From: an uncultured Cytophagales bacterium
GTDB taxonomy: Bacteria; Bacteroidota; Bacteroidia; Cytophagales; Bernardetiaceae
DNA: 64,000 nucleotides
Direction of reading: 5' to 3'
NCBI GenBank assembly: GCA_963719525.1
Contig: CAVRCG010000004.1
Span: 861,579 to 925,578 of the forward strand
Notes under the pieces: generated by a model
Database searches by the model: none
What the model was told of the DNA's origin: nothing
The model's input: the letters and a program-made list of their open reading frames with translations, nothing else
In this document: positions 742 to 41,600 of the stretch, piece by piece
Layout of the letters: every line of letters starts with the position of its first letter
Position numbering within the stretch: position 1 is the first letter of the stretch
Position numbers and translations under genes: made by a program

Positions 742-1515
742 TTATAAAAAAATTTCTTTCGGATATTCTACATTTACCAAAAAAAGTCCATTTGAAGGAA
801 CAGAAAAGCCTGCTGATTTTCTATTTTTATCTAAAATAATTTTCTCAAAATCTTCTATTTCTATCTTTCCTTCTCCTACCAAAAAAAGAGAACCTATAAT
901 GGCACGAACCATTCCTCTCAAAAATCAATTTGCAGAAATAGTAAAACGCCAAAATTCAGTCTGACTATCCTTCTCTTTTGTCCAAATCGCTTTACTAATC
1001 TCACATTCAAAATTACTTACCTGCGTTTTTACCTTACTAAAAGATTCAAAATTTGTGTGATTTAATAAATATTCGGCTGCTTTGTTCATTTTCTCAAAAC
1101 GAGAGTCATCCAGACCCTTATTTTTTCTGTGAAAATGAGCGTGATTTATCAAAAATGGATTTTTTTCAAGAATTACATGATAATGATATATCCTTAAAAA
1201 AGCATCAAAACGAGCATGTGCAGTTTCTATAACTGGAATAACTTTTAAAATAGCAATTTGAGGAGGTAAAAAACTATTCATTCGATATTTTAAATCTTCT
1301 ACATTAATCTTAGTTGAAGTATCAAAATGCGCAAATTGTTTTTTGCAATGTACGCCTGTATCAGTTCTTCCACTTCCTGTAACAGGCGTTTGTGTTCTCA
1401 AAATTTTTGATAAACCATCTTCAATAATTGATTGAATAGTTTTTGGGGTATTATTTTGAGATTGCCAACCGTGGTAATTTGTGCCTTCGTAAGCTATTTC
1501 TAAAAAATGACGCAT
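742..1515 (-). pseudogene. truA: tRNA pseudouridine(38-40) synthase TruA, with an in-frame TGA at 925-927
   Basis: The 196 aa ORF matches the TruA N-terminal two-thirds. In the same frame after the TGA, translation continues [20 protein letters not shown]...EYPKEIFL to the stop at 742-744. Other TruA proteins have R at this position (ISANRFLRGMVR), so the interruption is a CGA-to-TGA nonsense change. Confidence 0.8.
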
Positions 1516-4905: not shown

Positions 4906-4982
4906 TATTATTAGGTTTAAAATAAAAAATAAAAAACCTATAAGGTTTCCAAAAACCTTATAGGTTTGAATAAAATTAAAAC

Positions 4983-7900
4983 CTACATATTCCTCCTATA
5001 CTGCCCCCCAACTTCAAACAAAGCTCTAGTAATCTGTCCTAACGAACAGGTTTTAGTAGCTCTCATTAAGTGTTCAAACATATTTTCGTGTTTGATGGCT
5101 GCTTTTTGAAGGTCTTTGAGTATTTGCTGATTTTTTTGTTCGTCAAAAGAATGTAGCGACTTGAGCATATTTATTTGATACTCTTTTTCTTCTTCTGTCG
5201 AACGAATTACTTCGGCAGGAATAACGGTAGGCGAACCCTTCGAAGACAAAAATGTATTTACACCCACAATCGGATATTCGCCTGTGTGTTTTTGCATTTC
5301 GTAATACATACTTTCTTCCTGTATTTGTGTGCGCTGAAACTGTCTTTCCATCGCTCCCAAAACTCCACCACGCTCTGTAATTTGGTCAAAAATCTTCAAA
5401 ACAGCTTCTTCTACCAAATCAGTCAGTTCTTCAATAATAAACGAACCTTGCAACGGATTTTCATTTTTTGCTAATCCTAATTCTTTATTGATGATAAGCT
5501 GAATCGCAACAGCACGACGAACAGAATCTTCCGTTGGTGTCGTTATGGCTTCGTCGTAAGCGTTGGTATGCAGCGAGTTACAGTTGTCGTAAATGGCATA
5601 CAAGGCTTGTAGAGTAGTACGAATATCATTAAAATCAATTTCTTGTGCGTGAAGCGAACGCCCCGAAGTTTGGATATGATATTTTAGTTTTTGCGCTCTA
5701 TCGTTTGCTCCGTACTTGTTTTTCATCGCCTTTGCCCAAATACGACGAGCCACACGCCCAATAACAGAATATTCTGGGTCAATTCCATTCGAAAAAGAAA
5801 AACGAGAAATTCGGTGCAAAATCATTAATATCCATTCCTCTACTCAAATAATATTCGGCAAACGTAAAACCGTTACTCAATGTAAAGGCAAGTTGCGTAA
5901 TTGGATTTGCGCCTGCTTCTGCAATATGATAACCCGAAATAGAAACCGAATAGAAATTTTGAACGTGATGGTCAATAAAATACTGCTGAATATCTCCCAT
6001 GAGTTTTAGCGAAAATTCGGTACTAAAAATACACGTATTTTGCGCTTGGTCTTCCTTCAAAATATCAGCTTGAACCGTTCCACGTACTTGTGTGAGTGTT
6101 TTTGCTTTAATTTTATCATAAATTTCTTTATCCAAAACTTCATCGCCTGTTGCTCCTAAAAGCATCAACCCTAAACCGTTATTTCCTTCTGGCAAACCTC
6201 CATTATAAGTAGGACGAATTTTGCCTTCATATTTTTTCTTGACTTTTGCCTCAACTTCTTCCTCTAAACCGTTTTCTTTGATGTAAATTTCACATTGCTG
6301 ATCAACGGCTGCATTCATAAAAAAGGCACACACCGTAGCAGCAGGTCCAATTAATGGTCATTGAAACCGAAGTCGTTGGGTCAGCCAAATTAAAACCTGA
6401 ATAGAGTTTTTTTGCATCATCCAAACAACATACATTTACACCCGAATTACCCACTTTTCCATAAATATCTGGACGATAATCTGGGTCTTCTCCATACAAT
6501 GTTACCGAATCAAAAGCCGTCGAAAGTCGTGCAGCAGGCATTCCTTTTGAAAGATAATGAAAACGTCTGTTTGTGCGTTCGGGACCTCCTTCGCCTGCAA
6601 ACATACGAGTAGGGTCTTCGCCAGTACGCTTAAACGGAAAAACGCCAGCCGTAAATGGAAATTCTCCCGGTACATTTTCTTGTAAATTCCATTTCAAAAC
6701 ATCTCCCCACGCTTTGTATTTTGGTAGCGAAATTTTAGGAATTTTGGATTGAGAAAGAGAAACGGTATAAGTCTTTAAACTAAATTCTTTATTACGAACT
6801 TTATAAACAAAATCATCAGCTGTATAAGTAGCTACTTTTGCTTGCCAATCTTCAATTATTTTCCAGTTTGTACCTTCTAAAGTGAGTTTTATTTGTTCGA
6901 AAGTATCTTTCAAGCCATTTATAATAGAATCTTTCAGTTCTTTTTCTAGTTCTTCATTCTCTGAAATAGAATGAATAGAAAGTTCTAAACCGTATAATTT
7001 TTGTGCAATTTCGGCTTGGTCTTCTACATTTTTATCATAACGACGATTACTTTCACTAATTTCTGACAGATAACGAACTCTTGAAGGAGGAATAATATAC
7101 TGTTTTTCAGACGTAGAAGCCGATATTTTGAAAGTAGAATCAAATAATTTTGTAGGCGAATTTTCACTAACTTTATTAATTTGGTCAATCAAAGCACGAT
7201 ACAACGTATTCATTCCAACGTCATTAAACTGCGATGCAATCGTACCATAAACAGGAATTTCTGAATCTGGTGTATCCCACAAATTACGGTTTCTTTTGTA
7301 CTGTTTTTTGACATCACGAAGCGCATCTAAAGCACCACGTTTGTCAAATTTATTGAGTGCAATTACATCAGCAAAATCAATCATATCGATTTTTTCTAAC
7401 TGCGAAGCTGCACCATATTCTGGTGTCATAACGTATAAAGAAGCATCAGAATGGTCTGTAATGGCTGTATCAGATTGTCCAATTCCAGAAGTTTCAACGA
7501 TAATCAAATCAAATTCGGCTGCACGCAAAATATCAATCGCATCTTGAACGTATTTTGAAAGAGCTAAATTAGACTGACGAGTAGCCAAAGAACGCATATA
7601 AACACGGTCGTTTGTAATCGAATTCATACGAATACGGTCGCCTAAAAGTGCGCCACCAGTACGACGACGAGAAGGATCAACTGAAACAATGGCAATCGTT
7701 TTGTCTTCAAAATCCATCAAATAACGTCTTACAAGCTCATCAACAAGCGAAGATTTACCTGCACCACCTGTTCCTGTAATTCCCAAAACAGGAGCTACTT
7801 CTTCTGGAATAAGTGTTTTTATTTTCTTTATAATTTCCTTATTCTTTTCTGGATAATTTTCAACTGCCGAAATAATCCTGCCTATTGTCTTCGAATTTCT

Positions 7901-8395
7901 TTCTTTTATTGTTTCTACTTCGCTAATTTCTACATCGTGTCCTGTTGGAAAATCAGTTTGTTCAAGCAAATTATTTATCATTCCTTGAAGTCCCATTGAA
8001 CGACCGTCATCTGGATGATAAATTTTGGTAATGCCGTAATTATGCAGTTCTTCTATTTCAGAAGGCAAAATCACACCTCCACCACCACCAAAAAGTTTGA
8101 TATGTCCTGCACCTCGCTCTTTCAAAAGGTCGTGCATATATTTAAAATATTCTACGTGTCCACCTTGATACGAAGTAATGGCAATCGCTTGTGCATCTTC
8201 TTGAATGGCACAATTTACAATTTCTTCTACCGAACGGTTGTGTCCTAAATGAATCACTTCTGCACCTGAAGATTGAATAATTCGGCGCATTATATTTATA
8301 GCTGCATCGTGTCCATCAAAAAGTGCTGCTGCTGTAACGACACGCAGTTTGTTTTTTGATGTATAAGGCAATGGAATTGGAGGATTTGTACTCAT
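4983..8395 (-). pseudogene. icmF: fused isobutyryl-CoA mutase IcmF (B12-binding domain, MeaB-like GTPase and mutase substrate domain), interrupted by two single-base frameshifts
   Basis: Three consecutive minus-strand ORFs (6302-8395, 5779-6333, 4983-5825) together make one IcmF-like protein of about 1090 aa. B12-binding N-terminus, GTPase P-loop [12 protein letters not shown], mutase C-terminus. The breaks are an extra T near 6335 (TINW... versus expected TING...) and an extra T in a T-run near 5800 (FSFFFFEWN versus [12 protein letters not shown]). Confidence 0.85.
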
Positions 8396-11440: not shown

Positions 11441-12052
11441 CTACAAACCATTTTCCCTTTTCGTTTCGTCTATAATATGCTGCAAAGCTCCTAAAAGCAA
11501 ATCTAATTCATTTATCAAAAAACGCTTTTCATCTATTGTAATCTGATTATTTTCATATCTAATAAAACGCCATTCTACACCTGTTGTAGAACAACCATAA
11601 AGAACTTTTATAGGATTTCCTTCTAGTTCATTTAGTTTTTTTGCACCAATAAGTTAAGCCGAAACTTGTAGCGTCCCTTGTTCTAAATCTTGCTTTTTGG
11701 CTTCTGTAATACAGAAAATAGGAGTTAAGACAAAATCTTGAATCCTGCTAAACGAAAAAACAAAATCACATTCTCCTCGCAATCCCAAATCTGTACTTAC
11801 ATCTAAATTTGCACCCGAATAAATAGAAAAAGAATGTTTGTTTATTTCACTTAGTTCTGTCAAAACAGGACTTACAAGACGTTCAGAACGTGATTTTTCA
11901 CTCCCAAAACCCATTTGAGTAGATTTTTTTAGAGAAGCAACGAGCCATTCGGAAGCTGGAAGAGGAACAAGATTAGGAAATAAATTGGTAGCTCTAAACT
12001 TAATTTCAAACTTGTTTATTAAATCTAAATAGGTAAAATCGTTATATTCCAT
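11441..12052 (-). pseudogene. PD-(D/E)XK nuclease-like protein of the HsdR N-terminal-domain family, with an in-frame TAA at 11654-11656
   Basis: The 132 aa ORF ends at TAA, and the same frame continues LIGAKKLNELEGNPIKVLYGCSTTGVEWRFIRYENN... to the stop at 11441-11443. A D...ExK-like motif (GECDFVF...CITEAKK) is present. The TAA is probably CAA-to-TAA. Confidence 0.5.
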
Positions 12053-14198: not shown

Positions 14199-15371
14199 TC
14201 AAAACAATCGATTATACATTTTTATCCAACGCTCTGGCATTTCTCCTCTATTAGCTTGTTGATAATCATTATAACTACAAGGAATAATCGATGGACGTTG
14301 ATACGGGTTTTCTTCATTATCTTCTTCAAAATGTGGTGCAGGAACTTCTAACCACCATTTATCGGTCAATTTACTTTTATAAAAAACCATCATAAAGTCA
14401 GTTCGTCCTCCCATTGGAACAAGATATTTTATGTAAAACGGACTTCCAAAATCATATTCAGCTTGGCGATTATAAAATCCTTCTACAAAATACCAAATCA
14501 TTGTCGAAATAATACTTGCTGTATGTCCGTATAAATCTAAGTCAGGATTATATTCGTAAAATCCTATTGAGGTCATCTGTACATTATTTCCTGCATACCA
14601 ACAAATTCGTGTCGCTTCTTCTGCTGAAAGTCCAAAAGGTTGAGCGAGTTTGTTTGCTGCTGCATCGGCTGCACGAATAGCACTCAAATCAAAACTAAGT
14701 AAATCGGCAGTTCTTACAAGTGGTTCTATTTCTTCTGGTTTATCCCTAATTTTCCCTACTCCAACAACATCAAAATTTAGTTTTTGATATAATTTTATAA
14801 AATCTAACGGAATCAAATATTCTTGACTAGCCAAATGAGTAATATTAAATAAATAATTGGGTTGTAATTTTAATATTTTATCTATAAAACTATCTGCTGG
14901 GAAATTACTATTTACATCTAAATCAATCTTGGCATCAACACATAAAAGCGAAAGCATTTTGTCCAATGGTTTATAGGCTTCATATTGTGCCAACGTCAAA
15001 TTGTGGCTTCCTCCAATAATTATTGGCAAAACATTTTTCTGTAAAAGTCTATAACACACTTCACTCAAACGCTCTTTTGTCTGACTTTCATCTTCTGTTA
15101 ATCTCAAATTTCCTAAATCTATAATGTTATATTTGTGCGCTCGTCCTTTCTGCAAACGATATAATTTTTGACGAACAGCATCGGCAGCATTAAGCATCGA
15201 TTTGTTTTCAGAGCCATTTTTGTCATCAACTCCAATGATTGCGATTTCGGCATCTTGCCACGAAGTATCAGCCGAAAAATTACCAGTCAAGATTTCAAAC
15301 CATGTGTTTTTATGGTTTTGTCCATCAAAATTGGATAAGGAAGGTTTGTTGAAGAATAGTTCTAGGTTCAT
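14199..15371 (-). CDS. arginase/agmatinase/formiminoglutamase family protein (ureohydrolase superfamily)
   Basis: 390 aa with manganese-ligand motifs (IGVDDKNG, IIGGSHN, DLS). Confidence 0.7.
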   Translation of the reverse strand: MNLELFFNKPSLSNFDGQNHKNTWFEILTGNFSADTSWQDAEIAIIGVDDKNGSENKSMLNAADAVRQKLYRLQKGRAHKYNIIDLGNLRLTEDESQTKERLSEVCYRLLQKNVLPIIIGGSHNLTLAQYEAYKPLDKMLSLLCVDAKIDLDVNSNFPADSFIDKILKLQPNYLFNITHLASQEYLIPLDFIKLYQKLNFDVVGVGKIRDKPEEIEPLVRTADLLSFDLSAIRAADAAANKLAQPFGLSAEEATRICWYAGNNVQMTSIGFYEYNPDLDLYGHTASIISTMIWYFVEGFYNRQAEYDFGSPFYIKYLVPMGGRTDFMMVFYKSKLTDKWWLEVPAPHFEEDNEENPYQRPSIIPCSYNDYQQANRGEMPERWIKMYNRLF

Positions 15372-15396: not shown

Positions 15397-15789
15397 TTAG
15401 TTTTGCTCTTTATCTTCTCCATTAAGTTTGTCGTTTATTCCCAAAATAACGTCCTTTAAATAGCTTTCTGATATAGTTTCCATTTCTGATTTGTCATAAA
15501 TAGCAACTAAGAAAATAGTAGTTTCATCTTCTAAATCTTTTTCAATTACATCTACTAAAACTTCGACCACGTAAGTAACAACACGCAAACCTCCTCTTTT
15601 TCCTTTGCCTTTACTTTTTACGGCTAAACGAATTTTGTACGTATTTTCAGAAATTAAAGTGCCTATTTTTGGATTATTGATAAGTTGTTGTTGTAATTCA
15701 GCTAATTCCGATTTGAGAGAAATGTATTTTTTCAAAAGTTTCTTAGCATCTCTCTTAAATTCATCGATAAGAGTTATTTTATAGTTCAT
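15397..15789 (-). CDS. type II toxin, RelE/ParE superfamily (HigB-like killer protein)
   Basis: 130 aa with KGKGKRGGLRVVTYVV...IFLVAIYDKSEMETI, typical of addiction-module killer proteins. It overlaps the upstream antitoxin gene by 11 nt. Confidence 0.7.
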   Translation of the reverse strand: MNYKITLIDEFKRDAKKLLKKYISLKSELAELQQQLINNPKIGTLISENTYKIRLAVKSKGKGKRGGLRVVTYVVEVLVDVIEKDLEDETTIFLVAIYDKSEMETISESYLKDVILGINDKLNGEDKEQN

Positions 15790-16003
15790 CTAAAAAATCT
15801 TTTAATGAAGTTCCTTTTTTTTCTCCTCTTTGTATTTGTCGTACTTCTCTGAAAGCTCTTTCTAGTTTGTCTTTCATTAATAGCTTATTTTTCATGTCTT
15901 CAATTTCTTGTACAAAATTTTCCCATTCTTTTAAGCTAAGTTGTACAACGGTTTCTTTTCCTTCTTTATCTTCTATATAATGTGGTTGTGGAATTTTTAT
16001 CAT
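15779..16003 (-). CDS. cognate antitoxin (74 aa)
   Basis: Small protein upstream of and overlapping the toxin gene, with the C-terminal motif GTSLKDFLDEL. Confidence 0.6.
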   Translation of the reverse strand: MIKIPQPHYIEDKEGKETVVQLSLKEWENFVQEIEDMKNKLLMKDKLERAFREVRQIQRGEKKGTSLKDFLDEL

Positions 16004-16824
16004 TTCGTTTTTTATTTAAAGTGTTTTTCTGAATAAACGCATTATCTCCAAAGTTAGTTTTTATTTGAAATGAATTGGAAATCTAATCCTAAAAATTATA
16101 TCACAAGTTAGAAAATATTTCCACAACAAGTTTGGTTTATAAAAAAATAATTCTTACCTTTGCAACTCGTTAAAGAAAGCCATAGGAAAAAGCCTAAGCT
16201 ACTGCGTCTAGTTAAATGTTTGAATAATGATAGTAAATTGTAAGTAAATTATTACTAAGTAAAATTACTACTTCATTAAACAGACAGAAAAATTTAACTA
16301 TTGAAATATAGAAAACTTTGATTTAAAAGTACATATTTAAAAATTCCGAAATACTTCTGACTTCTAATTTCAGACTTCTGAATTTATTATTGTACCTCTT
16401 TTCTGTTCACTACACAAGAAGTCTTTGTTGAGTTAGCTTGCGTTGTGAAATTTAATTTAATTATATTTTTATTAATACTGATTAAATTATTTTTCAAATC
16501 ACAAAACAAACCGTTCAACGCCTCCCACAAAAGCTTCTCACTTAGCACAAACCTCAAAGTCATCTAGGTTTCGTCTTTTTGACTCTATCAACACTTGATA
16601 AAATATCGTATTTGTTTAATTATTTAGAACTATAAATTTTACTCTCATAAAGTTCTGCATGTATATGTAGTTTTTATTGATTGCTCTTTATTTTCTTATC
16701 TAAATTATTACGTTCAAATAAATTTGTTTATCCGAATTGATACATATCTGACCGTCTGCTTATTCGTTTTTTTGAGTTGCTTTCTACAATTATTTACAAT
16801 ATATAATTTATTATAGTTTTTAGT

Positions 16825-18222
16825 ATGGAAAAGACAATAGAAAAAAAATCAAAGAAAGTAACTGAATCTACACAATCAACAGAGGTAACTTTGAAATTTA
16901 CAGACATGAATCTGTCTGATGAAGTAAAACGTGCCGTTGAAGCAATGGGATTTGAATCTCCATCACCAATTCAAGAACAAGCAATTCCTTTTTTATTAGA
17001 AGGTAGAGATGTAATCGGACAAGCACAAACAGGAACAGGAAAAACGGCTGCATTTGGTATTCCTCTTATTGAAAGAATTATCAAAGCAAACGAGAATAGC
17101 GAATTTGACAGAAATTCAAGATTACCGAAAGGAATTATTTTGTGTCCTACTCGTGAACTTGCCGTTCAGGTAGCAGGAGAATTAGAAAAATTAGCAAAAT
17201 ACCGTAAAGATATTTTCGTAACGGCTGTTTATGGTGGCGAATCTATTGAAAAACAAATTCGTAACCTTAAAAGAGGTGTTCAAATCGTAGTAGGAACTCC
17301 AGGACGTACCATTGACCATATAAAAAGAGGAACTTTGAAGCTAGAAGAAATTACAAATGTAATTTTGGATGAAGCCGATGAGATGCTTAATATGGGTTTC
17401 AAAGAAGATATTGAGCTTATTTTAGAAGAAATCACGACAGAACACCAAACTGTTTTGTTCTCGGCTACAATGCCTAAACCGATTCTTCAAATTGCTAAAA
17501 AATACCAAAACAATCCAGAAATTGTAAAGGTAATCAGTAAAGTATTGACAAGCGATAACATTGAGCAATCGTTTTTACCAATTAATCCAAATTACAAAAC
17601 AGAGGTTTTAGTTCGTTTGTTGGCGTATAATGGTTGGGAATCAATGCTTATTTTCTGTAACACAAAACAGAGAACTGACGAAGTAGCAGAAAAATTAATC
17701 CAAAAAGGATATTCAGCAGAAGCATTGCACGGAGATTTGGCACAACACCAACGTAATTTGGTAATGAATAAATTCCGTCACGGTCGTGTTCAAGTTTTGG
17801 TAGCGACAGATGTTGCAGCTCGTGGAATTGACGTGGATAATGTAGAAGCAGTTATTAATTATGATGTGCCTTTAGATCCAGAGTATTATGTTCACCGTAT
17901 TGGTCGTACTGGTCGTGCTGGTAATACAGGTGTTTCGATTACATTTATTTCTGGTCGTAGAGAAGTTTATCGTCTGAATGATATAGAGCGTTATTCTAAA
18001 TCCAAAATTTCTCAAGGAACAATTCCTACTCAAGATGAAGTTTTGGCTAAGAAACAAGTTCGTTTTATGGAAAACTTAAAAGCAACTATCAATGATGAGA
18101 AAAAAGCTGAAGAATTAGAAGGCTTTACAGCTCTTATTGAAATGTTGGAAATAGAAGGAATTACTGCAAAACAAGTAGCTGCTGCCGTTTTGAGCCTTCA
18201 AATTTCGAAACAAACCTACTGA
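16825..18222 (+). CDS. deaD: DEAD-box ATP-dependent RNA helicase (DeaD/CsdA-like) core, truncated by a frameshift just before its C-terminal extension
   Basis: Q motif, AQTGTGKT (motif I), DEAD, SAT and HRIGRTGRAG motifs. The stop at 18220-18222 is followed in the +1 frame by the expected C-terminal domains. Confidence 0.9.
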   Translation: MEKTIEKKSKKVTESTQSTEVTLKFTDMNLSDEVKRAVEAMGFESPSPIQEQAIPFLLEGRDVIGQAQTGTGKTAAFGIPLIERIIKANENSEFDRNSRLPKGIILCPTRELAVQVAGELEKLAKYRKDIFVTAVYGGESIEKQIRNLKRGVQIVVGTPGRTIDHIKRGTLKLEEITNVILDEADEMLNMGFKEDIELILEEITTEHQTVLFSATMPKPILQIAKKYQNNPEIVKVISKVLTSDNIEQSFLPINPNYKTEVLVRLLAYNGWESMLIFCNTKQRTDEVAEKLIQKGYSAEALHGDLAQHQRNLVMNKFRHGRVQVLVATDVAARGIDVDNVEAVINYDVPLDPEYYVHRIGRTGRAGNTGVSITFISGRREVYRLNDIERYSKSKISQGTIPTQDEVLAKKQVRFMENLKATINDEKKAEELEGFTALIEMLEIEGITAKQVAAAVLSLQISKQTY

Positions 18223-18688
18223 CAAACTTTCAGAAGCTGAAATCTGGGATACTAGAGATAGAAGAAGAGATGGACGTGGTGGAAACGACCGTAGAGGTGG
18301 TGGACGTGATAGAGGTGGAAGAAACGACCATAGAGGTGGGCGCAATGATAGAGGAAGTCGTAATTCTAGTTCTTCTCGTCGTGATGATAGAGGTGGAAGC
18401 CGTGACCGTAATGATAGAACAAGCCGTCCTTCTTACAAAGATCGTGGCGACCGTGCTGATATGGTTCGTTTGCGTATCGATTTGGGTGCAACTGAAAATG
18501 TGCGTAAAGGCGATATCTTAGGAGCAATTGCAGGAGAAACAGGAATGCGTGGCGACAAAATCGGTTCTATTCGTGTAAACGAGAGAGAATCTTTCGTAGA
18601 AGTACCACAGTCTGACGTTGATAATATCATCAGAGTAATGAACAAGTCTAAAATAAAAGGTAAAAAAGTTGAGTTTGAAAAAGCTTAA
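18191..18688 (+). pseudogene. deaD: out-of-frame C-terminal part of DeaD: RGG/RD-rich linker plus DbpA-type RNA-binding domain
   Basis: The +1 frame reads KPTDKLSEAEIWDTRDRRRDGRGGNDRRGGGRDRGG...MVRLRIDLGATENVRKGDILGAIAGETGMRGDKIGSIRVNERESFVEVP..., which is the canonical DeaD C-terminus. The shift is within CAAATTTCGAAACAAACC near 18205-18215. Confidence 0.75.
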
Positions 18689-23477: not shown

Positions 23478-26400
23478 ATGAAAAATAATTCTATTTCAAA
23501 ATATATCTACTGCAAAGAAATTCGATTTCTTTTGTTAGTTGGTTTCTTATCTATTTTAGGCTCAACTCAACTCTTTGCACAAACCTATTATTCTAGAGCT
23601 ACTGGAGATTGGAACAATCCTAACACGTGGAGTACAGTAGCTTGTGGAGGAACGGCTGCTGCAACTATTCCTACTACTACGAGTAATGTTATTATTTGTA
23701 CTGGAAATACTGTAACATTAAATATTGCAGCAACTTGTAATAATCTTACTGTAAATAATACAGGAACTTTGCAAATAACTAATTTTAACTTTACTGTCAA
23801 TCAAACCACTACTATCAATACAGGAGGAATGATTGATGATAATGATCAAGGAGGAAGTAACACATATGCTACTATTATCAATAATGGAACTTTTACTGCT
23901 AATCTTGCAGGAACACATACTACCTTTTTTGGAGGTAATATTACTAACGACGGTACATTTTCTCTATTAGGTTCAAGTCAATATGCTTTTACAAGTGATT
24001 TAATAATTACCAATAATGGAGGCAATATGCGATTTAGTTCAAACTCTGCGAGTGGAGGTTGTTCTATTAATGCTGGTACTACTGTTACGATTGCCAATGG
24101 AACTTCTACAGGTTTTGTGGCTCTTTATGCCAATGTAGTTAATCTTAATGGAGCAATTAATAATAACTATAGCAATGGGCGATTGCGATTAAGTAAGTTC
24201 AATGGAACAGGAACAGTTACCAATTCAGGCTATATTTATTATGAATCTACTAATACTCCTCCTACTGCAAATCTTGTTAATAATTCAGGTTCTACTTTTG
24301 ATTATGCCTATGATAGCCAAGTAAAATTAGTTACTTATAGTAATCTCGTGTTTTCTTATTCTAGCTCTTTCGCTAGTGGTTTGATAGGAGATATAACAGT
24401 AAACGGAAATTTATCTATTATACACCCTAATACTATATTGAATGCCAATACGCACAACATAGATATAAAAGGAAATTGGTCAAATACAGGTACTTTTAAT
24501 GGAGGCACAGGAACGGTAAGTTTTACAGGAACAACCAATCAAACCATAGATGGCAGTACCTCTTTCAACAATCTAATTGTTAATAATTCTAATAATGTAA
24601 CAATAAATAATAGCAATAATGCAGCTACTTCCAATTTGACACTTACAAATGGAAACGTGATATTAAATAACGCTTCTAATTTAGGTTTCAATACCATTAC
24701 TGGAGCTAACGCTACAAAATATATTGTTACTAACGGTACAGGGAGTTTGAGAAAAATAACTGCAGCTACAAATGTTGTTTTTCCTGTAGGAAACGCTTCT
24801 AATTATCAACCTTTGCGCTTATCTACTGCTGCTGCAAGTTCAGACGTTCGTTTTGGAACAGGACTCAATACTCCTGCTGGTGGAGTGGGTTCGTGGTTTG
24901 TAAACAATGGAACAACTGCTTCTAATCTAACAGTATTAAATCCACAAGGAGGAACTCTTTTACCCACCTCTAGAATTAGTGTAAATTCTTCTGGTTGGCT
25001 TCCACTAGCAACTACGTTTGCTTTCTCTGCTTACAGTACCACTTCGCCTTTTGCCTTTGCTACTACTCACGAGTTTTCTGTATTTAGTGTTCCTACCATT
25101 AATCTTTCTGTAAGTTCTAATGCAGGTTCGGAAGCAGCAGCTACTTCTATTACCGTAACAGCAACAGCTTCGACAGCAGTAGTGGGAAATCAAAGTGTAA
25201 ACTTAGCTATTACAGGAACAGGAATTACTACAGGAGATTATACATTGAGTAATGCTACAATTACTATTCTTGATGGACAGACTGTAGGAACAGTAACTTT
25301 TACAGTTGTAGATGATGCACTGGTAGAAGGAACAGAAACAGGCTATCTTGACTATCAATACACCTTCACAAGGAGTACTTTTAGGAACAACTACTACACA
25401 GAATGTCGTCATTACTGATAATGATTCTGAAGCAGAAATCAATCTTCAAGGAAACGCAAATAATATTAGTAGTGGAACTACTACTACAAGTGCAGTAAAT
25501 AATACAGATTTTGGAAATGTTTTGGCGTGTGGAGCAAATACAGTTTCTAAAACCTTTGTTATTCAAAATACTGGAACTTCTGTCTTAAATATTACAGGGA
25601 TTTCTATTGGAGGAACACATGCTACTGACTTTACATTAGGAACTGTTCCTACAACAGTCGCAGGAAATAGCAATCAAAGTTTTGTTATCACTTTTGATGC
25701 TTCTGTAGCTGGAAACAGAACTGCTACAGTAAGCATAAGTAGTAATGATACTGATGAAAATCCATACACTTTTGCTATCAATGGAAATGGAATTGATAGA
25801 GAAATTAATGTTTTAGGAAATTCGGTTTCTATTACAGATGGAGATACTTCGCCAGATGCGAGTGATAATACAAATTTTGGAAATACAGCTCTTCCTAAAA
25901 CTATGAGTTATACCATTCAAAATACAGGAACAGAGGTACTTACTATTTCTTCAATTACTTCAAGTAACACGGCTGATTTTACCATAACAGGAACAGTTCC
26001 TACTTCGGTAGCTGCTGGTGGAAATGCTACATTTGATGTTACCTTTACCCCTTCTACATTAGGTTTGAAAACAGCGACTATTACCGTAAATAACGATGAT
26101 TGTGATGAAGCAACTTTTGATTTTGCAGTACAAGCAACGGTAATAGTTGCTCCAACTCAACCCGTAGGAAATAGAGGACTTTATTTTGATGGCGTTGATG
26201 ATTATGTGAATATAGGAACATCTAGTAAGATTAATTTTTCAGGTAGTGATAATTTCACTATCGAAATGTGGATAAAAAGTAATGGTACTGGAGGAATGTT
26301 GTTTGACAAAGTCCCTCTTTTTCCTTCTCTTCCAAATACATTAGGAATATGGACACAAATTGATGCTAGTGGTATTCTTTCATTTCATTTAGGTAAAGAA

Positions 26401-29400
26401 GGAACAGGATGGGACTTCTTATCTACTACTGATCCTGTTCAAACTAATCGTTGGACACATGTAACATTTGAGAAGCAAGGTAGTACCTCTAGAATTTATA
26501 TAGATGGAATACTCAAAGCATCTAGAAATTTGCCAAATTCTTCTACTGCTATAGCTGATGCTTCTCCTGCAAATTTAGGTAGGTTTAGAAGAGAACCTGC
26601 TTTTAAGTATTTTGGTGGACAGATAGATGAATTTCGTTTATCAAACAATTCTAGATATGGAGGAGCTGCTTTTACTCCACAAGAGAGTTATACAGTTGAT
26701 CTAAATACTATTTTGTATTATCCAATGAATGAAGGTACAGGACAAACAGTTGCAGATGCTTCTGCTAATCCATTGATTGCTAGTTTGGGAGAAACTACAG
26801 CAGCAGAAACTCCTATAGACCCTCTTTGGGCATTGCGAGTGAAAAATGTAAATAATACTGGTTCAGAAAGTATTGTAGAAGTGATAACACAATCAAACGC
26901 ATTAGCTGGTAGAAATTATGTTGATTTTAGTATTGACAACACAACACCTACTGTTCGTACTATCGCTTTAACTGGTGCATTGAACGTAACTGAACAAGTT
27001 CTTATCAATGGATATTCAGCTTTTGGTAGTGATACAGAATTGCGTATAGACATAAATGGAAATACAAACAATATTTTCAATTTTAATTCTAATAATTCTA
27101 CTCTACAAGGACTGATTATGCGAGATGCTGGTTCAGCAGTCAATGTAAATGCTGCAAATAATGGCAATAAAATTTCTAGAAATAGCATTTTTAATAATAC
27201 TGTTGGTATTAATTTGAATAGTACAGGAAATGGAGGTAAAGTTGCTCCTGTAATCACATCTGCTACTATTAGTCTTATTTCAGGAACTTGTGCTACTTGT
27301 GTTGATGGAGAAGTGATAGAATTATTTAGAGATAATCTTACTACACCCACAGCAAACAAACAGGGAAAAGAGTATTTAGGTACAGCAACAGTTACCTCAA
27401 ATGCTTGGAGTATGGCAGCACCGTTTACCATGACACTTAGTTTGGGCGACTTCATAACTGCTACAGCTACCAATATTACTTCCAATAATACGTCTCCCTT
27501 TTTCGACGGCTTTTCCTATCGTAGATATTATCTTAGGGACAATTACACCTACTACCTACTGTACAGGTTCGACAATTACTATTCCTTTCACAACTGGAGG
27601 AGCATTTAATACTGGAAATACATTTACGGCTCAATTATCAGATGCAAGTGGTAATTTTGGAACACCTACAGCAACGCAAACAGGAACAAGTTCGATTGCT
27701 TTAGTCATTCCAAATACAGCACCAGCAGGAACAAATTATAGAGTGCGTGTGATTTCTTCAGATCCAGTTATAACTAGTAATTTGTCACCTGTACTTACTA
27801 TTAGTGTACTTCCTTTGGATAGAACAATTGTAGCAAATCCTGCTACTATCAATTCAGGAACAAGTAGTGTTATTGAAGTTCCCAATTCAGAAACAGGAGT
27901 TTCTTATCAATTACAAGATGTTACCAATGGAAATACAGATGTAGGAACAGCTTTAATAGGAGATGGAACAACGCTTTCTTTGCCCACTCAAACCCTTACA
28001 GCCACTAATGATTTCAGAGTAGTTGCTACCAGAACAGGTTGTTCAATTACTCTCAATACAGTAACTGTAATTACCTCTTCTGGTGATGTTCTGTTAGTAG
28101 AAACAGGAGTTAATTATCCAACTATTCAAGCTGCCGTAAATGATGCTGTAGCAGGAAATACAATCCGTCCTCTGACTGCTAGACCTTATCCTGAAAGCGT
28201 AGTAGTAGATAAAAACCTTACCTTTACTTCTCCTACTCAGCCTATTTTTGATGATTATAGAAGCATAAACATCAATGGTATAACTGTAAGTACAGGAATT
28301 AGCCTAGTTATTGATGGCAATATGAGCGTGAACAAAGTAGTAGAAATGGAAGGAACAGCACAAATGAGCGTTGTTGGAGGTAGAGATTTTGCCCTTCGTT
28401 CAACGATAACCGAAACGGCACTACTAATAAATGGTTCTACTACAAACACAATTGTTGGAAACGTAATTATGGAAAGATATATGCCAACTGTTTCTGATTT
28501 ATCAGGTGGCTATGATGCACAGGCGTATCATTTGTTCTCTTCTCCATTTTCTAATTCAACTATTTCACAGTTTGGAGATGATATGAGTTTGGTTTTGAAT
28601 ACAGCTTATAATACAGCACCAGAACCTGCTTTTGTACGTCCTTTCCCTACGTTTTTTCATTATGTAGAAACAAATGGTAGAGCAAACACAAGTGCATATT
28701 ACAATCCGTTTATTTCAAACTATAAAGTTCCTACAGGTACAGGTTTAGAAATTGCTAGAGGCTATCAAGCTAATATTGCCACAACAACAACGGTAGATTT
28801 GAATGGTACACTAAACAATGGTAATATTTCCATTGCAGTAACTAATTCTAGTGGAGATGCAGCCGATGGATATAATCTGGTTGGTAATCCATATCCTTCT
28901 CCAATTGATTGGGATTTGATTCATGCAGCTTCTTCAAATGTAGAAAGTGCGCTTTATTTGGAAATTCCGACAAGTCAGTACGACGGACGTTTTGCCGAAT
29001 ATGTAGCGGGAACAGGTGTTATAAACAATGGAGGTAAAAAAGAAATTGCCTCAATGCAAGGCTTTTTTGTCAGAACAACGGCTGGAGGAACGGTTAATAT
29101 GAATAATACAGTTCGTCTTGATGCAGATGCTCGTTTTTATAAAACTACCGAAACCGAAGACCTAAAAGAAGGCTTAGTAAGAGTAGCTTTACAGGGAAGT
29201 AATTCGTTAGACGAAACAACAGTTTATTTCCAAAACGGTGCAACTTCTAACTTTGATGGAAAGTATGATGCAGCCAAAATCCATAAGTTCAATAGTAAAT
29301 TATCTACTTTATATTCTTACAATGAAGATGCAGAAACAGCAGAATATTTTGCCATTAATGGTTTGGGAAGTTTTGATTCTGATCAGACTTTACCTTTAGC

Positions 29401-29866
29401 AATGAATATTCTGACAGAAGGCGAATATGAAATTACACTTCGTACAATGAAATATTTCCATTCTAAACACGAGCTTTATTTATATGATTCTTTGACAGAT
29501 TCGCTTCATAATTTGCGTGCAGAAGGCGATTATAAGTTTGCAGCTACAAAAGGCTACGAAGTAAAACGTTTCGTTCTTTTATTCAAAACAGATGCAAATC
29601 AAGACTTCTTTATAGATGAGAAAGTGGTAGTTTATCCAAATCCAACTCCAGATGAATTTTCATACAGTTTGAAGACAGATAGAGAAGGAGACTATACAAT
29701 TCGTCTTTTTGATGCAACTGGTAGAGTACTATTTGAAGAAAGCAAAACAAAAGAAGGTGCATTTTTAGAAGGAACATTAAGTTTAGAAAAACACGCTGCT
29801 GGACTTTATTTGCTGCAAGTATCTGATGCTCAAAAAACAGTTACAGTACGTGTTGTGAAAGAATAA
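23478..29866 (+). CDS. giant T9SS-secreted adhesin of about 2100 aa (Calx-beta, Ig-like repeats, T9SS type A C-terminal sorting domain), present as three ORF fragments joined by two single-base frameshifts
   Basis: The fragments are 23478-25418, 25348-27609 and 27743-29866. Junction 1 near 25345 splits a Calx-beta domain (VDDALVEGTETGYL | TINTPSQGVLLGTTTTQNVVITDNDSEAEI). Junction 2 is in a T-run near 27500, after which the +1 frame reads an Ig-like domain (TITPTTYCTGSTITIPFTTGG...). The C-terminus VVVYPNPTPDEFSYSL...LYLLQVSDAQKTVTVRVVKE is a type A (Por_Secre_tail) sorting domain. Confidence 0.75.
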
Positions 29867-34725: not shown

Positions 34726-35240
34726 AAACTAGAAAAAAAAGGTTAAGCAAAAGCATAAAGCTAAAACTATAAAAATATATTCTAAAACTAAGGCAAAATG
34801 CAGTAAAAAAGCAACTGTAAAATAAATGCAAAATTATCTTGTTATCTTTAAACAAAGGTAGGAAAGCATACCAAATTATCAATAAATCTGTTAGATTAAA
34901 ATAATGTAAAATACGCTAACGTTCTAACTGATAGCTATTTGTATCACTTTCAACAAAATGGATAATTAGCTTAATTATATTAGTTTTTGTAAATTTGTTA
35001 GAATATAGAATCTTATTTGGCAAAACACCACTTTTGACAAATATTTATAATAGGATTGGGTTTTGATAAACATTACTATTATGCGTAAATTTAGGACAAT
35101 CTTATTCTAACGAGAGATACAAAAATTTGTTTTTATGATTATTAATTCTAAATTATAGAAATAAACGATTCTACACAAAATCAACATAACTAAAATTATA
35201 TCTACTTTAATTTACTATTAAGTTATTTAATCAATCATAT

Positions 35241-35666
35241 ATGAAAATGAAAAATCCCCCTTTATTTTGCAGCTTGATTTTTTTCATGGTTGCTTTTTTT
35301 GTGTCTTCTAATCTTGCACTAGCGCAAAACGAAAGAATAGAAGACTTGCCAAAGGCTTATATTACAAACGAACTTTATGTAATGCTTGATGGAGATAATG
35401 CTCCACAAAATGCAAAAGTATTTGAAGCTGATATTCTAGAACTACACTTGGCTACAAAAGAACAAGCCGATCGTTTTTTTGGCTTTTTTAATGATGCTAA
35501 TGTAACTTTTGAAACAAATATTATTACTCAAAAAACGATTGTTACTCTAATCCCTGATGTAGAAAAGCAAAATTGGACAGTAAAGCAATGGGCAATGTAC
35601 CTAAAAAATAAAATATCTGCCCAGCGAGAGCAATTCGGAACTTATATTGATTTTACCAAAAAATAA
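35241..35666 (+). CDS. hypothetical secreted protein (141 aa)
   Basis: Signal peptide LIFFMVAFFVSSNLALAQ. It ends 12 nt before the start of the giant gene and may be co-transcribed with it. Confidence 0.5.
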   Translation: MKMKNPPLFCSLIFFMVAFFVSSNLALAQNERIEDLPKAYITNELYVMLDGDNAPQNAKVFEADILELHLATKEQADRFFGFFNDANVTFETNIITQKTIVTLIPDVEKQNWTVKQWAMYLKNKISAQREQFGTYIDFTKK

Positions 35667-35678
35667 CCAGCCACACAA

Positions 35679-38600
35679 ATGAACAAATATTTTTACTCTT
35701 TTCTTGCTGTCTTATTGACAGTACTTTTTTGTGCTTTTTCGTGGCAAAATGTATATGCGCAAGGAGATGTTTGTGCTACTGCTACTCCATTTTGTACAGG
35801 TGTACCTACTCAATACCCTGCTGGTTTTAATCCTTCTGGTAGTGTAATAGCACCTAGGGGGCCTGATTATGGCTGTATAGGTGCAGAGAGAAATCCTGCT
35901 TGGTTTTATTTGCAATTTGATCAGATTGGTACAATAGAATTAAGCATTGGAAGAAGCCCTGCCAGAGATATTGATTTTGCTATTTGGGGTCCTTTTGCAC
36001 CTGGCACTACTCCATCGGCAGCATGTACAACATTGAACCAAGGAAATATAGCTCCAGCAGATTGTAGTTACGCTGGAGGAACAGGAATAGAAACTCCTGA
36101 AGTTACGGCTACTATACCAGGTCAAATTTTTATATTGATGGTTACAAATTTTAGTAATGCACAAACAGACCTTACCATTACTCAAACAGGTTCAAGTACA
36201 GGAACAACAGATTGTGCTATTATTAATGATGATTGTGACGTAAACTTGGGAGCAGATATTAATCTTTGCCAAACAGACCCAAGACCTACACTTGACGCTC
36301 GCCGTCCTTCTCACAACGCAGATACTCGTTATCAGTGGTTTGTAGATGGAGTTTCTCAAGGAGCAGCTTCTACTACCTCTACTCTTGCAGTTCAACCTCA
36401 TGTTCCTTCACTTACGCCTCATATATACAAGGTAATCGTAACAAGTATTGGTACTGGCTCTACAGGTTGTAACGAAAACGAAGATGAAATAAACGTAGTT
36501 ATAAAACCTACTCCAGCAATCAATCGTACTGTATTTCCAAATGATAGTACGCTTTGTAGTTCGGCAGGTGCTGCTGTCAGAATTGTGGCTTCTCAACCTA
36601 ATATAAGTTATCAACTTCTTAGAAATGGAACTCCTTTTGGTGGTCTGGTAGCAGGAAACGGAAATGTTATTCAACTTCCTCTCACAGGAATTCCAGCAGG
36701 TGTTTCTACTATTCAAGTGCAAGCAAGATATACAACTGCACCTACTTGTACAGTTGTGCTAACCGAACAAGCAGAACTCACTATTTTAGGAAACATTCAA
36801 GTGAATTTAGGACTAGACAAAGCAGTTTGTGAGAACGTGAGTGTGCCTTTAGATGGTTCTGATGCTTCTCAACCAGCAAATGCTACTTTTCAATGGCAAC
36901 GAAGTACAGACGGAGGAACTACTTATACTGATATTCCTTTGGCAACAAATCCAACTTATACAGCTTCTGAAACTTTAGTTACACCAAATACTCCTTTTGA
37001 AGTTTTCTATAGACTAAAAGTTATTATTCCTGCTAGTGTATGTACATATTCAGATGAAATAAAAATTACTTTCGAACCTTTTCCTCTTACAGATAGAACT
37101 ATAGAAGTAGATTCACTTTGTGTTACAGGACAAGGAAATATTAGAATCGTTAATCCACAAGCAGGCGCAAGATATAGCTATCAACTTCGTGAAAATAATG
37201 CAGGTGTAGTTGGTGCAGCTATTGGAACAGCACAATTTTCAGCAACAGGAAATCCTATTATTCTTACCACTCCAACTATTACTACTACTACAAAGTATTT
37301 TGTTGAAGTAAAAAATACATTAGCAGAAGCTCCTTGTTTGGTTTTATTAAGTACAGAACCAGAAGTTATTATACACCCACTTCCGACAGCAGAATTTAGT
37401 GAAGGAGAGGATTTGTGTCAAGGCGAAACAACAGAGCTTACTGTTACTATGACAGGAACGCAGCCTTTCACAATAACTTATCAAAAAGATGCAGACCCTG
37501 ATGTTATCATTACAGGAATAAATTCTAATACCTATTCTTTCTTTACCGATGAGCCTGGAATTTATACAATAATTAGGATTCAAGATGCGTTTTGCGAAAA
37601 CCTAAATAATCCGATAGATGGTTTGGTAAACGTAAATCCAATTCCTACTTTCACATTAGGAAATGATACTACACTTTGTGACAGTCAAGCACCTTTAGTT
37701 TTGAGAGCCAAAACGCCAGTTGATTTTGAAAACCCTACTTATGTTTGGCTTAGAGATGGTGTAGAACTGATTGGAGAAACAGGAGAAACTCTTACTACTA
37801 CCGAAAGTTCGGTCGGCTTGGCAGCTACAACCTATGAATATACTTTGGAAGTAACCAACAATGAAGCTCTTGATGTTACAAACTGCTTCTCATCAGATGA
37901 TATTTTAGTTACTTTTACGCCAAACCCAAGTTCGGTAATCACTTTTGCAGGTTCTACTTTTACCAATACTGGTGGTTTGTTGCAGTTCTGTGATACATTA
38001 GGAACACAAACTTTAAATGGTTTGATGCCAGACCATGCTAGTTTTGCAAATCTTGCTTACCAATGGAAAGATTTGGGAACAAATACAGTTGTAGGAACAA
38101 ACTCAACATTACCTGTTTCTAATTTTGGAGCTACAACTACGTATGAGCTTTTGGTAACCGACGGAGGAACGAATCCTTTATGTTCGAATACAGCTTCTGT
38201 TACGGTTCAGTTTATTACAAATCCAGTCGCTACCATTTCGCACAACGGAACAGTAGTTCCAGCAGGTGGAAGTCTTGATTTTTGTTTTGATGAAGGTGTA
38301 CAAGTTTTAAATGGAGTAGATGCCAGTCATGCAACCATTGCGAATGTAAAATACCAATGGAACAATCTCACCACAGGAACTTCTTTAGGTACAACACCTC
38401 AAATTAATGTCTCAAATCCGACAAATACATTTTCTTCTGTTGATTATCAATTAATTGTAAGTGATGAATCAAATACTGTTTTTTGTGATAGAATGGCAAC
38501 CATGACGATTAATTTTTATCCTAATCCAGAAGCAGTAATTAGTTTCAATGGAACGCCTACAACTTCGGTAGAGTTTTGTGATTCGGACGGAGCAAAAGTT

Positions 38601-41600
38601 TTGAGTGGTGTAACGCCAGACCACGCAGGTTTTCCTTCTATTACGTATGAATGGAAAAATGTAGCAACAAATGCAGTAGTAGGAAACGATCCAACGCTTA
38701 CAGTAAATAATTTTAGTGCAACTACTAACTATATACTTACAGTCGGAAATGGAATAACTCCTTTATGTGGAAGAACAGCAACAGCAACCGTTCAATATAA
38801 TGCGAATCCAGTTGCAGAAATTTCTCACAACGGAACAGCCGTTCCGAATGGTGGAAATCTTAATTTCTGTTTTGATGAAGGCGCACAAACTCTAAACGGT
38901 GTTCATCCAAGTCATACAGGATTGACAGTTACGTATCAATGGACAGATATTACAAACGGAACTGTTTTAGGAACAACTCCACAAATACCTGTTTCTAATC
39001 CTACAAATAGCTTTGCTTCTATTGATTATCAATTAATCGTAAAAGATGAATCAAATACTGTTTTCTGTGAGCGAACAGCTACAATGACAGTTAATTTTTA
39101 TCCAAATCCAGAAGCAGTAATTAGTTTCAATGGAACGCCTACAACTTCGGTAGAGTTTTGTGATTCGGACGGAGCAAAAGTTTTGAGTGGTGTAACGCCA
39201 GACCACGCAGGTTTTCCTTCTATTACTTATGAATGGAAAAATGTAGCAACAAATGCAGTTGTGGGAACAAGTCCAACATTTACTGTAGATAATTTTAGTG
39301 CAACTACTACTTATGTACTTACAACAAGTAATGGGATAACTCCTCTTTGTGGTCGTACAGCAACCGTTACTGTTAAATATAATGCGAATCCAGTTGCAGA
39401 AATTTCTCACAATGGTACAGCCGTTCCGAATGGTGGAAGTCTTAATTTCTGTTTTGATGAAGGCGCACAAACTCTAAACGGTGTTCATCCAAGTCATACA
39501 GGATTGACAGTTACGTATCAATGGACAGATATTACAAACGGAACTTCATTAGGAAATAATCCTCAAATAGATATTTCAAACCCTACAAATACATTTGCTA
39601 GTATTGATTATGAGTTGATTGTTAGAGATGAATCAAATGCAGTTTTTTGTGAGCGAACAGCTACAATGACGGTTAATTTTTATCCTAATCCAGAAGCAGA
39701 AATTAGTGTAAACGGAAACGTTCAAACAGGAAATACGATAGAGTTTTGTGATTCAGAAGGAGTTCAAACTCTTGATGGCACAATTCCAAATCTTGTTGAT
39801 GTTCCGACAGTTACCTATCAATGGACAGACTTAACTACAAATACAGTTGTAGGAACAGTTGCTACGCTTGATGTAGATAACTTTGGACAAACAACAACGT
39901 ATGAACTTTTGGTAAGTGATAATTTGCCTACTTCGTGTGAAAGAACGGCTCAAATTACTATCAAGTTTGTAGAAAATCCGATTGCAGAAATTTCTCACGA
40001 CGGAACAGCAATTCCAGATGGTGGCAATATAGATTTCTGTTTTGATGAAGGAGCGCAAACTCTAAACGGTGTTCATCTAAGCCATGCAGGTAGAACTATT
40101 CAATATGAATGGTTTGATGTTACTGCTGGAGTGAGTTTAGGAAATACGCCACAAATTTCGGTTTCAAGTCCTAGCAATACGCCTAATTCAATAGAATATG
40201 CTTTACAAGTAACAGATTTAGACAATGTAGCTATTTGTGAGAGTGCTACAACAATTACAGTAAATTTCTTAGAAAATCCAGTTGCAGAAATTCAGTTTAA
40301 TGGAACTCCTGCTCCTGCTACTTTGGCATTTTGTGATTCGGAAGGCGCACGAACTTTAGAAGGAGCTTTACCTTCTCATGCAGCTTTTGGTTCGGTTTCT
40401 TACGAATGGACACAAGTAGGAGTTGGAGTGGTAAGTAACATAAGTACACTTGTTACACCAGCATCAAACTTTTCTGCTTCGGCTACTTATGAATTGAAGG
40501 TTATCAGTAATGATAACCCTAATCTTTGTAGTAGAACAGACCAAGTAGTAATAGAATTTTTCCCTTCTCCAGATACAAATATTAGTTTTGAAGGAGCTAC
40601 CGTCACAGAATTAGGATTTTGTACAAGTGAAGGTGCAAAAACAGTTTCTGCTCCTGCTTCTCCTTTTTATACTTATCAATGGTACAGAGGAACTTTAGCA
40701 AATCCTTTACAAACTGCTTTAGGAACAATTCGTACTCAATCTGTGGATAATTTTGCTACACAAGGTGGAGATACAAATTCGGCTATTTATACTGTTGTCG
40801 TTACAGATACAAGAGCAACCTGTCCAGCACAAAGTTTTGTAAAAGTAGATTATTATGCAGAACCAGAAATTGATGCAGCTACATTAGTCGTTACAGCATT
40901 ACCAGCTACGCATTGTGTAACAGGAACTTCTACTATTTCGGTAAGGAATGCAGAGCAAGGTGTTGAGTATCAATTGACTAGAGCTGGCGTTCCTGTTGCA
41001 AGTTCAACACAAACTCCAAATGTTGATTTATCTACCATTACATTCCCAGTTACAGAATCTACAACACTTACAACAGGTGTAAGTAGATTTGAGTATGGAA
41101 TAATTGCAACCAGAATTGGAGCTTTTGGAAGACGTTGTACGCAAACATTAGCCGATACTGCAACATTACTTGTCTATCCTGCACCAACAGCAACAGTAGC
41201 AGGAACAGCAACAGTTTGTGCCAACGAACCAACAAATGTAACTTTTACGATTACAGGTAATTTTCCAGCAACACTTGTTTATCAAGTAACAGATACATTT
41301 AATGTTGCCAGAACAGAAACTCAAATAGTAGGAGCAGTTGGAAGTTCAAGTCCTCAAACTTTTGTAATCAATACAAACAGAAATAGCTACAGACCTCTTT
41401 CAATTACAGACAGATATTGTAGTGGAACAGTTACGGCAACCGAAGCAGTTGTTACGACAGTTCATCCTCCAATAGTAACATGGGTAGAATACGATACAGC
41501 TTTTTGTATTAATGAGGCAGCAACATTTAAAGTAAGAGGAGGAATAAGCCAGAGATATTATATCAACGGTTTGCCAGTTTCTACTCAAAATCCATACATT

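Follow-up and report, generated by a model that had tools for sequence, protein, structure and literature searches.

The 64,000-nucleotide stretch from contig CAVRCG010000004.1 of an uncultured Cytophagales bacterium analysed here ("the window") contains icmF, the gene for the fused B12-dependent isobutyryl-CoA mutase and its G-protein chaperone, in three pieces separated by two extra bases. As far as sequence comparison can tell, both breaks are probably artefacts and the organism carries one intact icmF encoding 1136 amino acids (aa); the two extra bases would be errors of the assembled consensus and not mutations. The break at site 2 exactly matches an error signature in which T or A runs flanking the tetranucleotide TCGA are one base too long, a signature that is also present between duplicate contigs in an assembly of close relatives.

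The three open reading frames (ORFs; Table 1) match successive stretches of the NCBIfam equivalog profile NF045497 and are thus consecutive pieces of a single IcmF, as the original prediction proposed. Their frames step from 1 to 0 to 2 (minus-strand codon-start coordinate modulo 3), so that each break is a +1 shift, and DNA alignment with four relatives (handles L001, L081, L082 and L087) finds that the two extra bases are the only frame-breaking coding differences. The same alignment contains no further indels or stop codons in the 3.4 kb gene, and removal of both bases gives a single 3411-nt ORF of 1136 codons with no internal stop, longer than the 1090 aa that had been predicted. The first junction had been placed near 6335; the break is present in the sequence but lies at 6349–6350, 6333 being only the first possible start codon in the middle ORF. 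Past this break fragment 1 loses its frame and ends at a stop codon at 6302–6304. The second junction lies in the T-run near 5800 where it was predicted to be, and there the window has CTTTTTCGAA while the relatives have CTTTTCGAA. Both break points are inside the mutase TIM-barrel domain (Pfam MM_CoA_mutase positions ~135–150 and 250). A terminator-like hairpin just past the icmF stop codon marks the end of one transcription unit that covers all three fragments.

The product of the repaired gene is, by sequence, a fused IcmF made up of a B12-binding domain, a MeaB-like GTPase chaperone and an isobutyryl-CoA mutase barrel. It scores 1773 bits against NF045497, for which the curated cut-off is a whole-protein score of 1500 bits; the deposited fragments individually fall short of it, at 995, 243 and 498 bits. 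Its alignment with the solved Cupriavidus metallidurans IcmF (4XC6; 1385 bits) is full-length, colinear and ungapped at both junctions, and the region around site 1 is gap-free. Across the fragments the Pfam domains PF02310 (residues 18–120), PF03308 (172–404) and PF01642 (570 to the C-terminus) follow one another in the B12-binding, MeaB-like GTPase, mutase barrel order of NF045497 and 4XC6, and the P-loop GTGGAGKSS and an NKFD motif are present. Unlike 4XC6, the protein has an insertion of ~40 aa between two aligned blocks (query residues 718–759), which its close relatives share. The deposited gene differs from known icmF genes in being spread over three frames; nothing else about it is unusual, and it is an ordinary member of a well-described family.

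The source organism belongs to the Bernardetia group of the Cytophagales. IcmF is encoded in a single frame, at 1124–1136 aa, in every relative found; these include B. litoralis DSM 6794, Bernardetia spp. ABR2-2B, MNP-M8, OM2101 and Wsw4-3y2, a Flexibacter metagenome-assembled genome (MAG) and several metagenome contigs. The window icmF is 96.4%, 95%, 93% and 92.5% identical in nucleotide sequence to those of L087, L081, L001 and L082, respectively, and the comparison with sister genomes that had been suggested gave a uniform answer: all four lack both extra bases, and the number of close Bernardetia-group relatives with an intact gene free of them is five. The dN/dS of the repaired gene against its relatives is 0.075–0.10, and that of the intact relatives among themselves is 0.08–0.11. 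Synonymous and nonsynonymous changes on the window lineage stand at 54.5:22.5, the same ratio as on the other lineages, and 3' of the first break there are two private amino-acid changes plus one Leu-Leu recoding. Neither dN/dS nor downstream damage thus gives a sign of relaxed purifying selection on icmF. The breaks must be either extremely recent or not real, because a long-dead gene with a second frameshift should carry more damage than this.

A single change elsewhere in the gene may be noted here. At 7129 (minus strand) a TTCGAA has become TTCAAA, replacing a conserved Glu with Lys. It is the sole window-private substitution among the 29 icmF TCGA sites conserved in all four relatives, too few for a test, and it may be another consensus error of the TCGA class.

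The icmF breaks have company. A stop-to-stop scan with a codon-usage score, followed by family searches, found seven disruptions in the 64 kb, in five of ~45 genes. Five are indels, every one of them a +1 insertion with no deletions, and the other two are nonsense codons, each a C-to-T change on the coding strand. Two of the affected genes, truA and deaD, are housekeeping genes. Recurrence of the insertion signature in deaD and in a large adhesin gene had been predicted and is borne out (one and two +1 insertions, respectively); the in-frame nonsense codons, in truA and in a conserved gene for a 203-aa protein, had not been noticed.

The breaks in the window cluster at one short motif far above chance. 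There are 73 TCGA sites, and positions within 4 nt of one make up 1.4% of the window, but three of the five insertions (icmF site 2, deaD and, most likely, adhesin site 2) lengthen a run that touches TCGA. The strings T5CGA or TCGA5 occur only twice in the whole window, and both are T5 frameshift sites that read TTTT(T)CGA (icmF site 2 and, most likely, adhesin site 2). Runs of A or T with exactly five bases number 189 in the ORFs; the two lying against CGA are the frameshifted pair, an outcome with a chance probability of 1 in 17,766. The original prediction had left the choice between gene decay and homopolymer indel errors. An assembly error is indeed favoured, but not one of the generic homopolymer kind: of the longer A/T runs in the ORFs, 73 have six bases, 26 have seven and three have eight, and none of these 102 is out of frame, which rules that kind out, while the breaks sit in runs of 2–5 and junction 1 of icmF in a run of two.

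The same pattern is seen where it can be read from duplicate sequence. The closest relatives, L081, L087 and L088, all come from a single ENA metagenome assembly, ERZ25039505, in which L081 is contig_15093 (32 kb) and L088 is contig_18598 (739 kb, also deposited at NCBI). Over 16.8 kb the identity of L081 and L088 is 99.77%. The first 15.1 kb contains 16 differences between them, half of which (8) are in TCGA or a run touching it (examples in L088 are 3449, 3595, 4608, 4699, 7477, 7585, 7886 and 11491). The icmF gene is split in L088 by TTT(T)CGAAC and is intact in L081, and an ABC transporter gene is broken in both contigs but at separate sites, TCGAA(A) in L088 and TCGAAA(A) in L081. All three of these frame-breaking differences are +1 in a run flanking TCGA with the broken copy the longer, and each time L087 backs the shorter run. 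One ATCGAT site reads ATCGAT, ATCAAT and ATTGAT across the three contigs. Near-identical copies that disagree by +1 and by C/T or G/A at one palindromic tetranucleotide indicate consensus error and not biology, and spurious pseudogenes are probably numerous in the deposited MAG to which contig_18598 belongs. Single-base indel discrepancies away from TCGA number ~4 per 33.6 kb of sequence between L081 and L088.

Two further L081/L088 discrepancies, at L088 positions 6423 and 6705, have the common context CCA[G/A]AT, which may be a second error-prone motif. The context of icmF site 1 on the plus strand, CCA(A)TT, is similar to it but not identical.

It is proposed that in the consensus a homopolymer flanking TCGA may be over-called by one base and that C/G positions may be mis-called as T/A. 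The pattern resembles the base-modification-linked errors of long-read (nanopore-type) consensus sequences. Assemblies of native DNA made by nanopore sequencing carry strain-specific, motif-linked C/T and A/G errors that have been ascribed to base modification (Lohde et al. 2024, PMC11610573; Genome Res 2024, PMC11610603). Like the errors described in those two reports, the ones discussed here recur at a short strain-specific motif, are dominated among substitutions by C-to-T and G-to-A, are carried through into the consensus and, in the sister assembly, vary from one assembled copy of the DNA to another. Those reports stress substitutions, whereas the frame-breakers here are T or A runs flanking TCGA that are over-called by +1. 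TCGA would be methylated in the source organism, and the window would come from the same kind of data as ERZ25039505, whose Flye-style contig names are the sole hint of a long-read platform. The two C-to-T nonsense codons are not predicted by a pure indel-error model but are predicted by a motif-linked (methylation-type) long-read model.

Several observations weigh against a consensus error. The icmF site 1, adhesin site 1 and TAA codon events are not at TCGA and call for a second error class; a second motif common to these three was looked for, and nothing convincing was found. The deaD event can be read as insertion of a G that makes a TCGA, and the truA TGA requires an assumed synonymous CGA intermediate, the relatives having CGT. 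The link between the window and ERZ25039505 consists of relatedness and the shared error signature. Exact look-ups of repaired IcmF and repaired DeaD, of TruA in six variants and of the 203-aa protein in four found no independent intact copy. Finally, the source contig is 3.80 Mb in length, and the cultured relatives have 4.9–5.9 Mb, a difference that reductive evolution with real pseudogenes would explain as well.

This last point bears on the most serious alternative, real and very recent pseudogenisation, with icmF, deaD, truA, the adhesin gene and the small conserved gene all lost in genome decay of the kind known from recently host-restricted or small-population bacteria; we regard it as unlikely. 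The deposited sequence does contain the breaks, gene callers divide icmF at them, a real break within the TIM barrel would kill the enzyme, and frameshifts coexist with nonsense codons. Several disrupted genes per 64 kb, housekeeping genes included, and a genome smaller than those of relatives are likewise what pseudogene-rich, recently host-restricted genomes have. The window differs from such genomes in several respects: selection on icmF is unrelaxed despite two breaks, there are no deletions and no insertion sequence elements at the breaks, and the breaks are clustered at one tetranucleotide. Deletions prevail in bacterial pseudogene decay, but here the indels are insertions in five cases out of five, and their clustering at runs flanking TCGA is not expected under any known decay process. 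Loss of truA and deaD, both housekeeping genes, also argues against it, as does the identity of the signature with the discordance between the duplicate contigs of the sister assembly. Should the breaks nonetheless be real, which we hold to be slightly less likely again, this would be a 3.8-Mb Bernardetia-group lineage in early reductive evolution in which icmF, deaD, truA and the gene for a large adhesin have only just been inactivated, perhaps by a mutational process that is linked to TCGA and lengthens the homopolymer next to it by a base.

A narrower version would make site 2 (5792–5796) an artefact and site 1 (6349–6350) a genuine frameshift, so that icmF is truly inactive. Site 1 does lack the TCGA context that marks the systematic error, but the ~4 non-TCGA indel discrepancies between L081 and L088 make a background error there several-fold likelier than a real frameshift, and selection downstream of site 1 shows no relaxation; the mixed case is therefore improbable, and site 1 would be a background consensus error of the same assembly. 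TCGA sites might instead truly mutate more often than others, methylation-dependent damage or repair being one conceivable cause, with the insertions and C-to-T changes as real polymorphisms. 5-Methylcytosine is known to be prone to C-to-T change by deamination, and TCGA varies with TTGA or TCAA among the relatives as well, including the isolate genome L082 and the older MAG L001. Deamination, however, leaves adjacent T or A runs at their original length, and two contigs of one assembly that are 99.77% identical would have to differ both in their inactivating insertions and in the genes that these hit, so that this explanation is very improbable. Least credible of all is recoding, by which programmed +1 ribosomal frameshifting or transcriptional slippage would restore full-length IcmF. 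From the sequence, tRNA-Phe could re-pair in the +1 frame in the T5 run of site 2, but one gene would need two separate shifts, the idea is contradicted by the fact that neither shift site is conserved (every relative has icmF in a single frame), and the runs of 2 and 5 nt are far below the lengths known to give productive slippage.

In deaD the window has TTTCGAAAC where the relatives have TTTCAAAC/T, aligned as TTTC-AAAC/T, which can be explained by over-calling of the A-run after TCG or by insertion of a G that produces a TCGA. The DeaD proteins of relatives are 600–617 aa in length, with the DbpA domain in frame. Calx-beta homologues, in which VEGTETAILTI is uninterrupted, fix the first adhesin insertion at GG (25341–25342). 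The second is bounded to 27458–27606 and is most likely in the T5 of a T5CGA site at 27499–27503; codon-usage switch-point mapping gave a likelihood that is flat over ~20–40 nt, compatible with this site but not decisive. A chimeric query of truA plus the adhesin junctions, whose matches were dominated by multi-copy Calx-beta proteins, returned no adhesin orthologue or close truA; it did supply the Calx-beta domains for the first junction. The in-frame TGA of truA occupies the position of a conserved Arg (CGT) in two relatives (L089 and L090), and a single C-to-T change would turn AAT CGA TTT (ATCGAT) into its context, AAT TGA TTT. Where the 203-aa gene has its TAA, Gln is encoded in L060, a homologue from Hymenobacter with 63% identity over 200 aa; this C-to-T change is not at TCGA. 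The 203-aa protein has no Pfam match, and its EAKK motif gives it a PD-(D/E)xK-like appearance.

Two very long genes are uninterrupted, one for a 2956-aa CHU_C-type surface protein (35679–44549, plus strand) and one for a 1323-aa Reg_prop/Y_Y_Y/SpoIIE regulator (49051–53022, minus strand), indicating that the disruptions are not simply proportional to gene length. The ORF at 35211–35666 and the surface protein gene are not one broken gene but two separate genes, the second with its own signal peptide. The original prediction also listed an antitoxin remnant. The sole antitoxin-like ORF found, at 15782–16015 (78 codons, with a weak RelB-like match), overlaps a downstream 130-aa ORF at 15397–15789 that has no Pfam match, and the two form an intact, toxin-antitoxin-like overlapping pair on the minus strand (15397–16015) and not a break; no antitoxin remnant with a frameshift was found. 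Nor do 14199–15371 and 15397–15789 make one gene, since stop codons lie between them in both frames.

Gene order around icmF and deaD is not kept among Bernardetia genomes (window compared with L082, L083 and L086; genes 90–95% identical). Short non-coding stretches at 2379–2611 and also 1759–2060 are 91–97% identical to sequence a few kb downstream of icmF in L001, L081 and L087, have at least four copies in L082 and include a hairpin, and so resemble a dispersed intergenic repeat. No Rfam families were found in the window, this repeat included.

Table 1. Positions of icmF, its two extra bases and the other disrupted genes in the window
Feature	Coordinates	Strand	Description
icmF fragment 1	6302..8395	−	697 aa as called; NF045497 profile positions 1–667; Pfam B12-binding, MeaB-like G-protein domain and start of the mutase barrel (MM_CoA_mutase 22–135)
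icmF fragment 2	5779..6333 (listed ORF; frame open from 6357)	−	184 aa, GTG start; NF045497 692–805; Pfam MM_CoA_mutase 150–251
icmF fragment 3	4983..5825	−	280 aa as called; NF045497 803–1076; MM_CoA_mutase 250–511; carries the true stop codon
icmF frameshift site 1	6349..6350	−	extra T on the coding strand, AATTGG versus AATGG (AA on the plus strand); no TCGA nearby
icmF frameshift site 2	5792..5796	−	coding-strand T5 versus T4 in all relatives, CGA directly after (TTTTTCGAA)
Terminator-like hairpin	4934..4967	−	15-bp stem, then a T-run; 16 nt past the icmF stop codon
truA	742..1515	−	in-frame TGA at 925–927, between two PseudoU_synth_1 halves
Conserved 203-aa gene, function unassigned	11441..12052	−	in-frame TAA at 11654–11656
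deaD	16825..18688	+	one extra base at 18207–18210, adjoining TCGA; repaired protein 620 aa
T9SS (type IX secretion system)-sorted adhesin	23478..29866	+	two +1 insertions; repaired protein 2128 aa

An annotator who took the breaks at face value would report that B12-dependent interconversion of isobutyryl-CoA and butyryl-CoA has been lost in this organism, along with an inflated pseudogene count and apparent genome decay. The false frameshifts and stops in the window assembly and the sister contigs would instead be non-random, not derived from long homopolymers, and concentrated at TCGA and the T/A runs that flank it. Errors linked to TCGA in this way would be predictable, and could be masked, or fixed by re-basecalling or polishing, before metabolic or evolutionary claims are made from such genomes.

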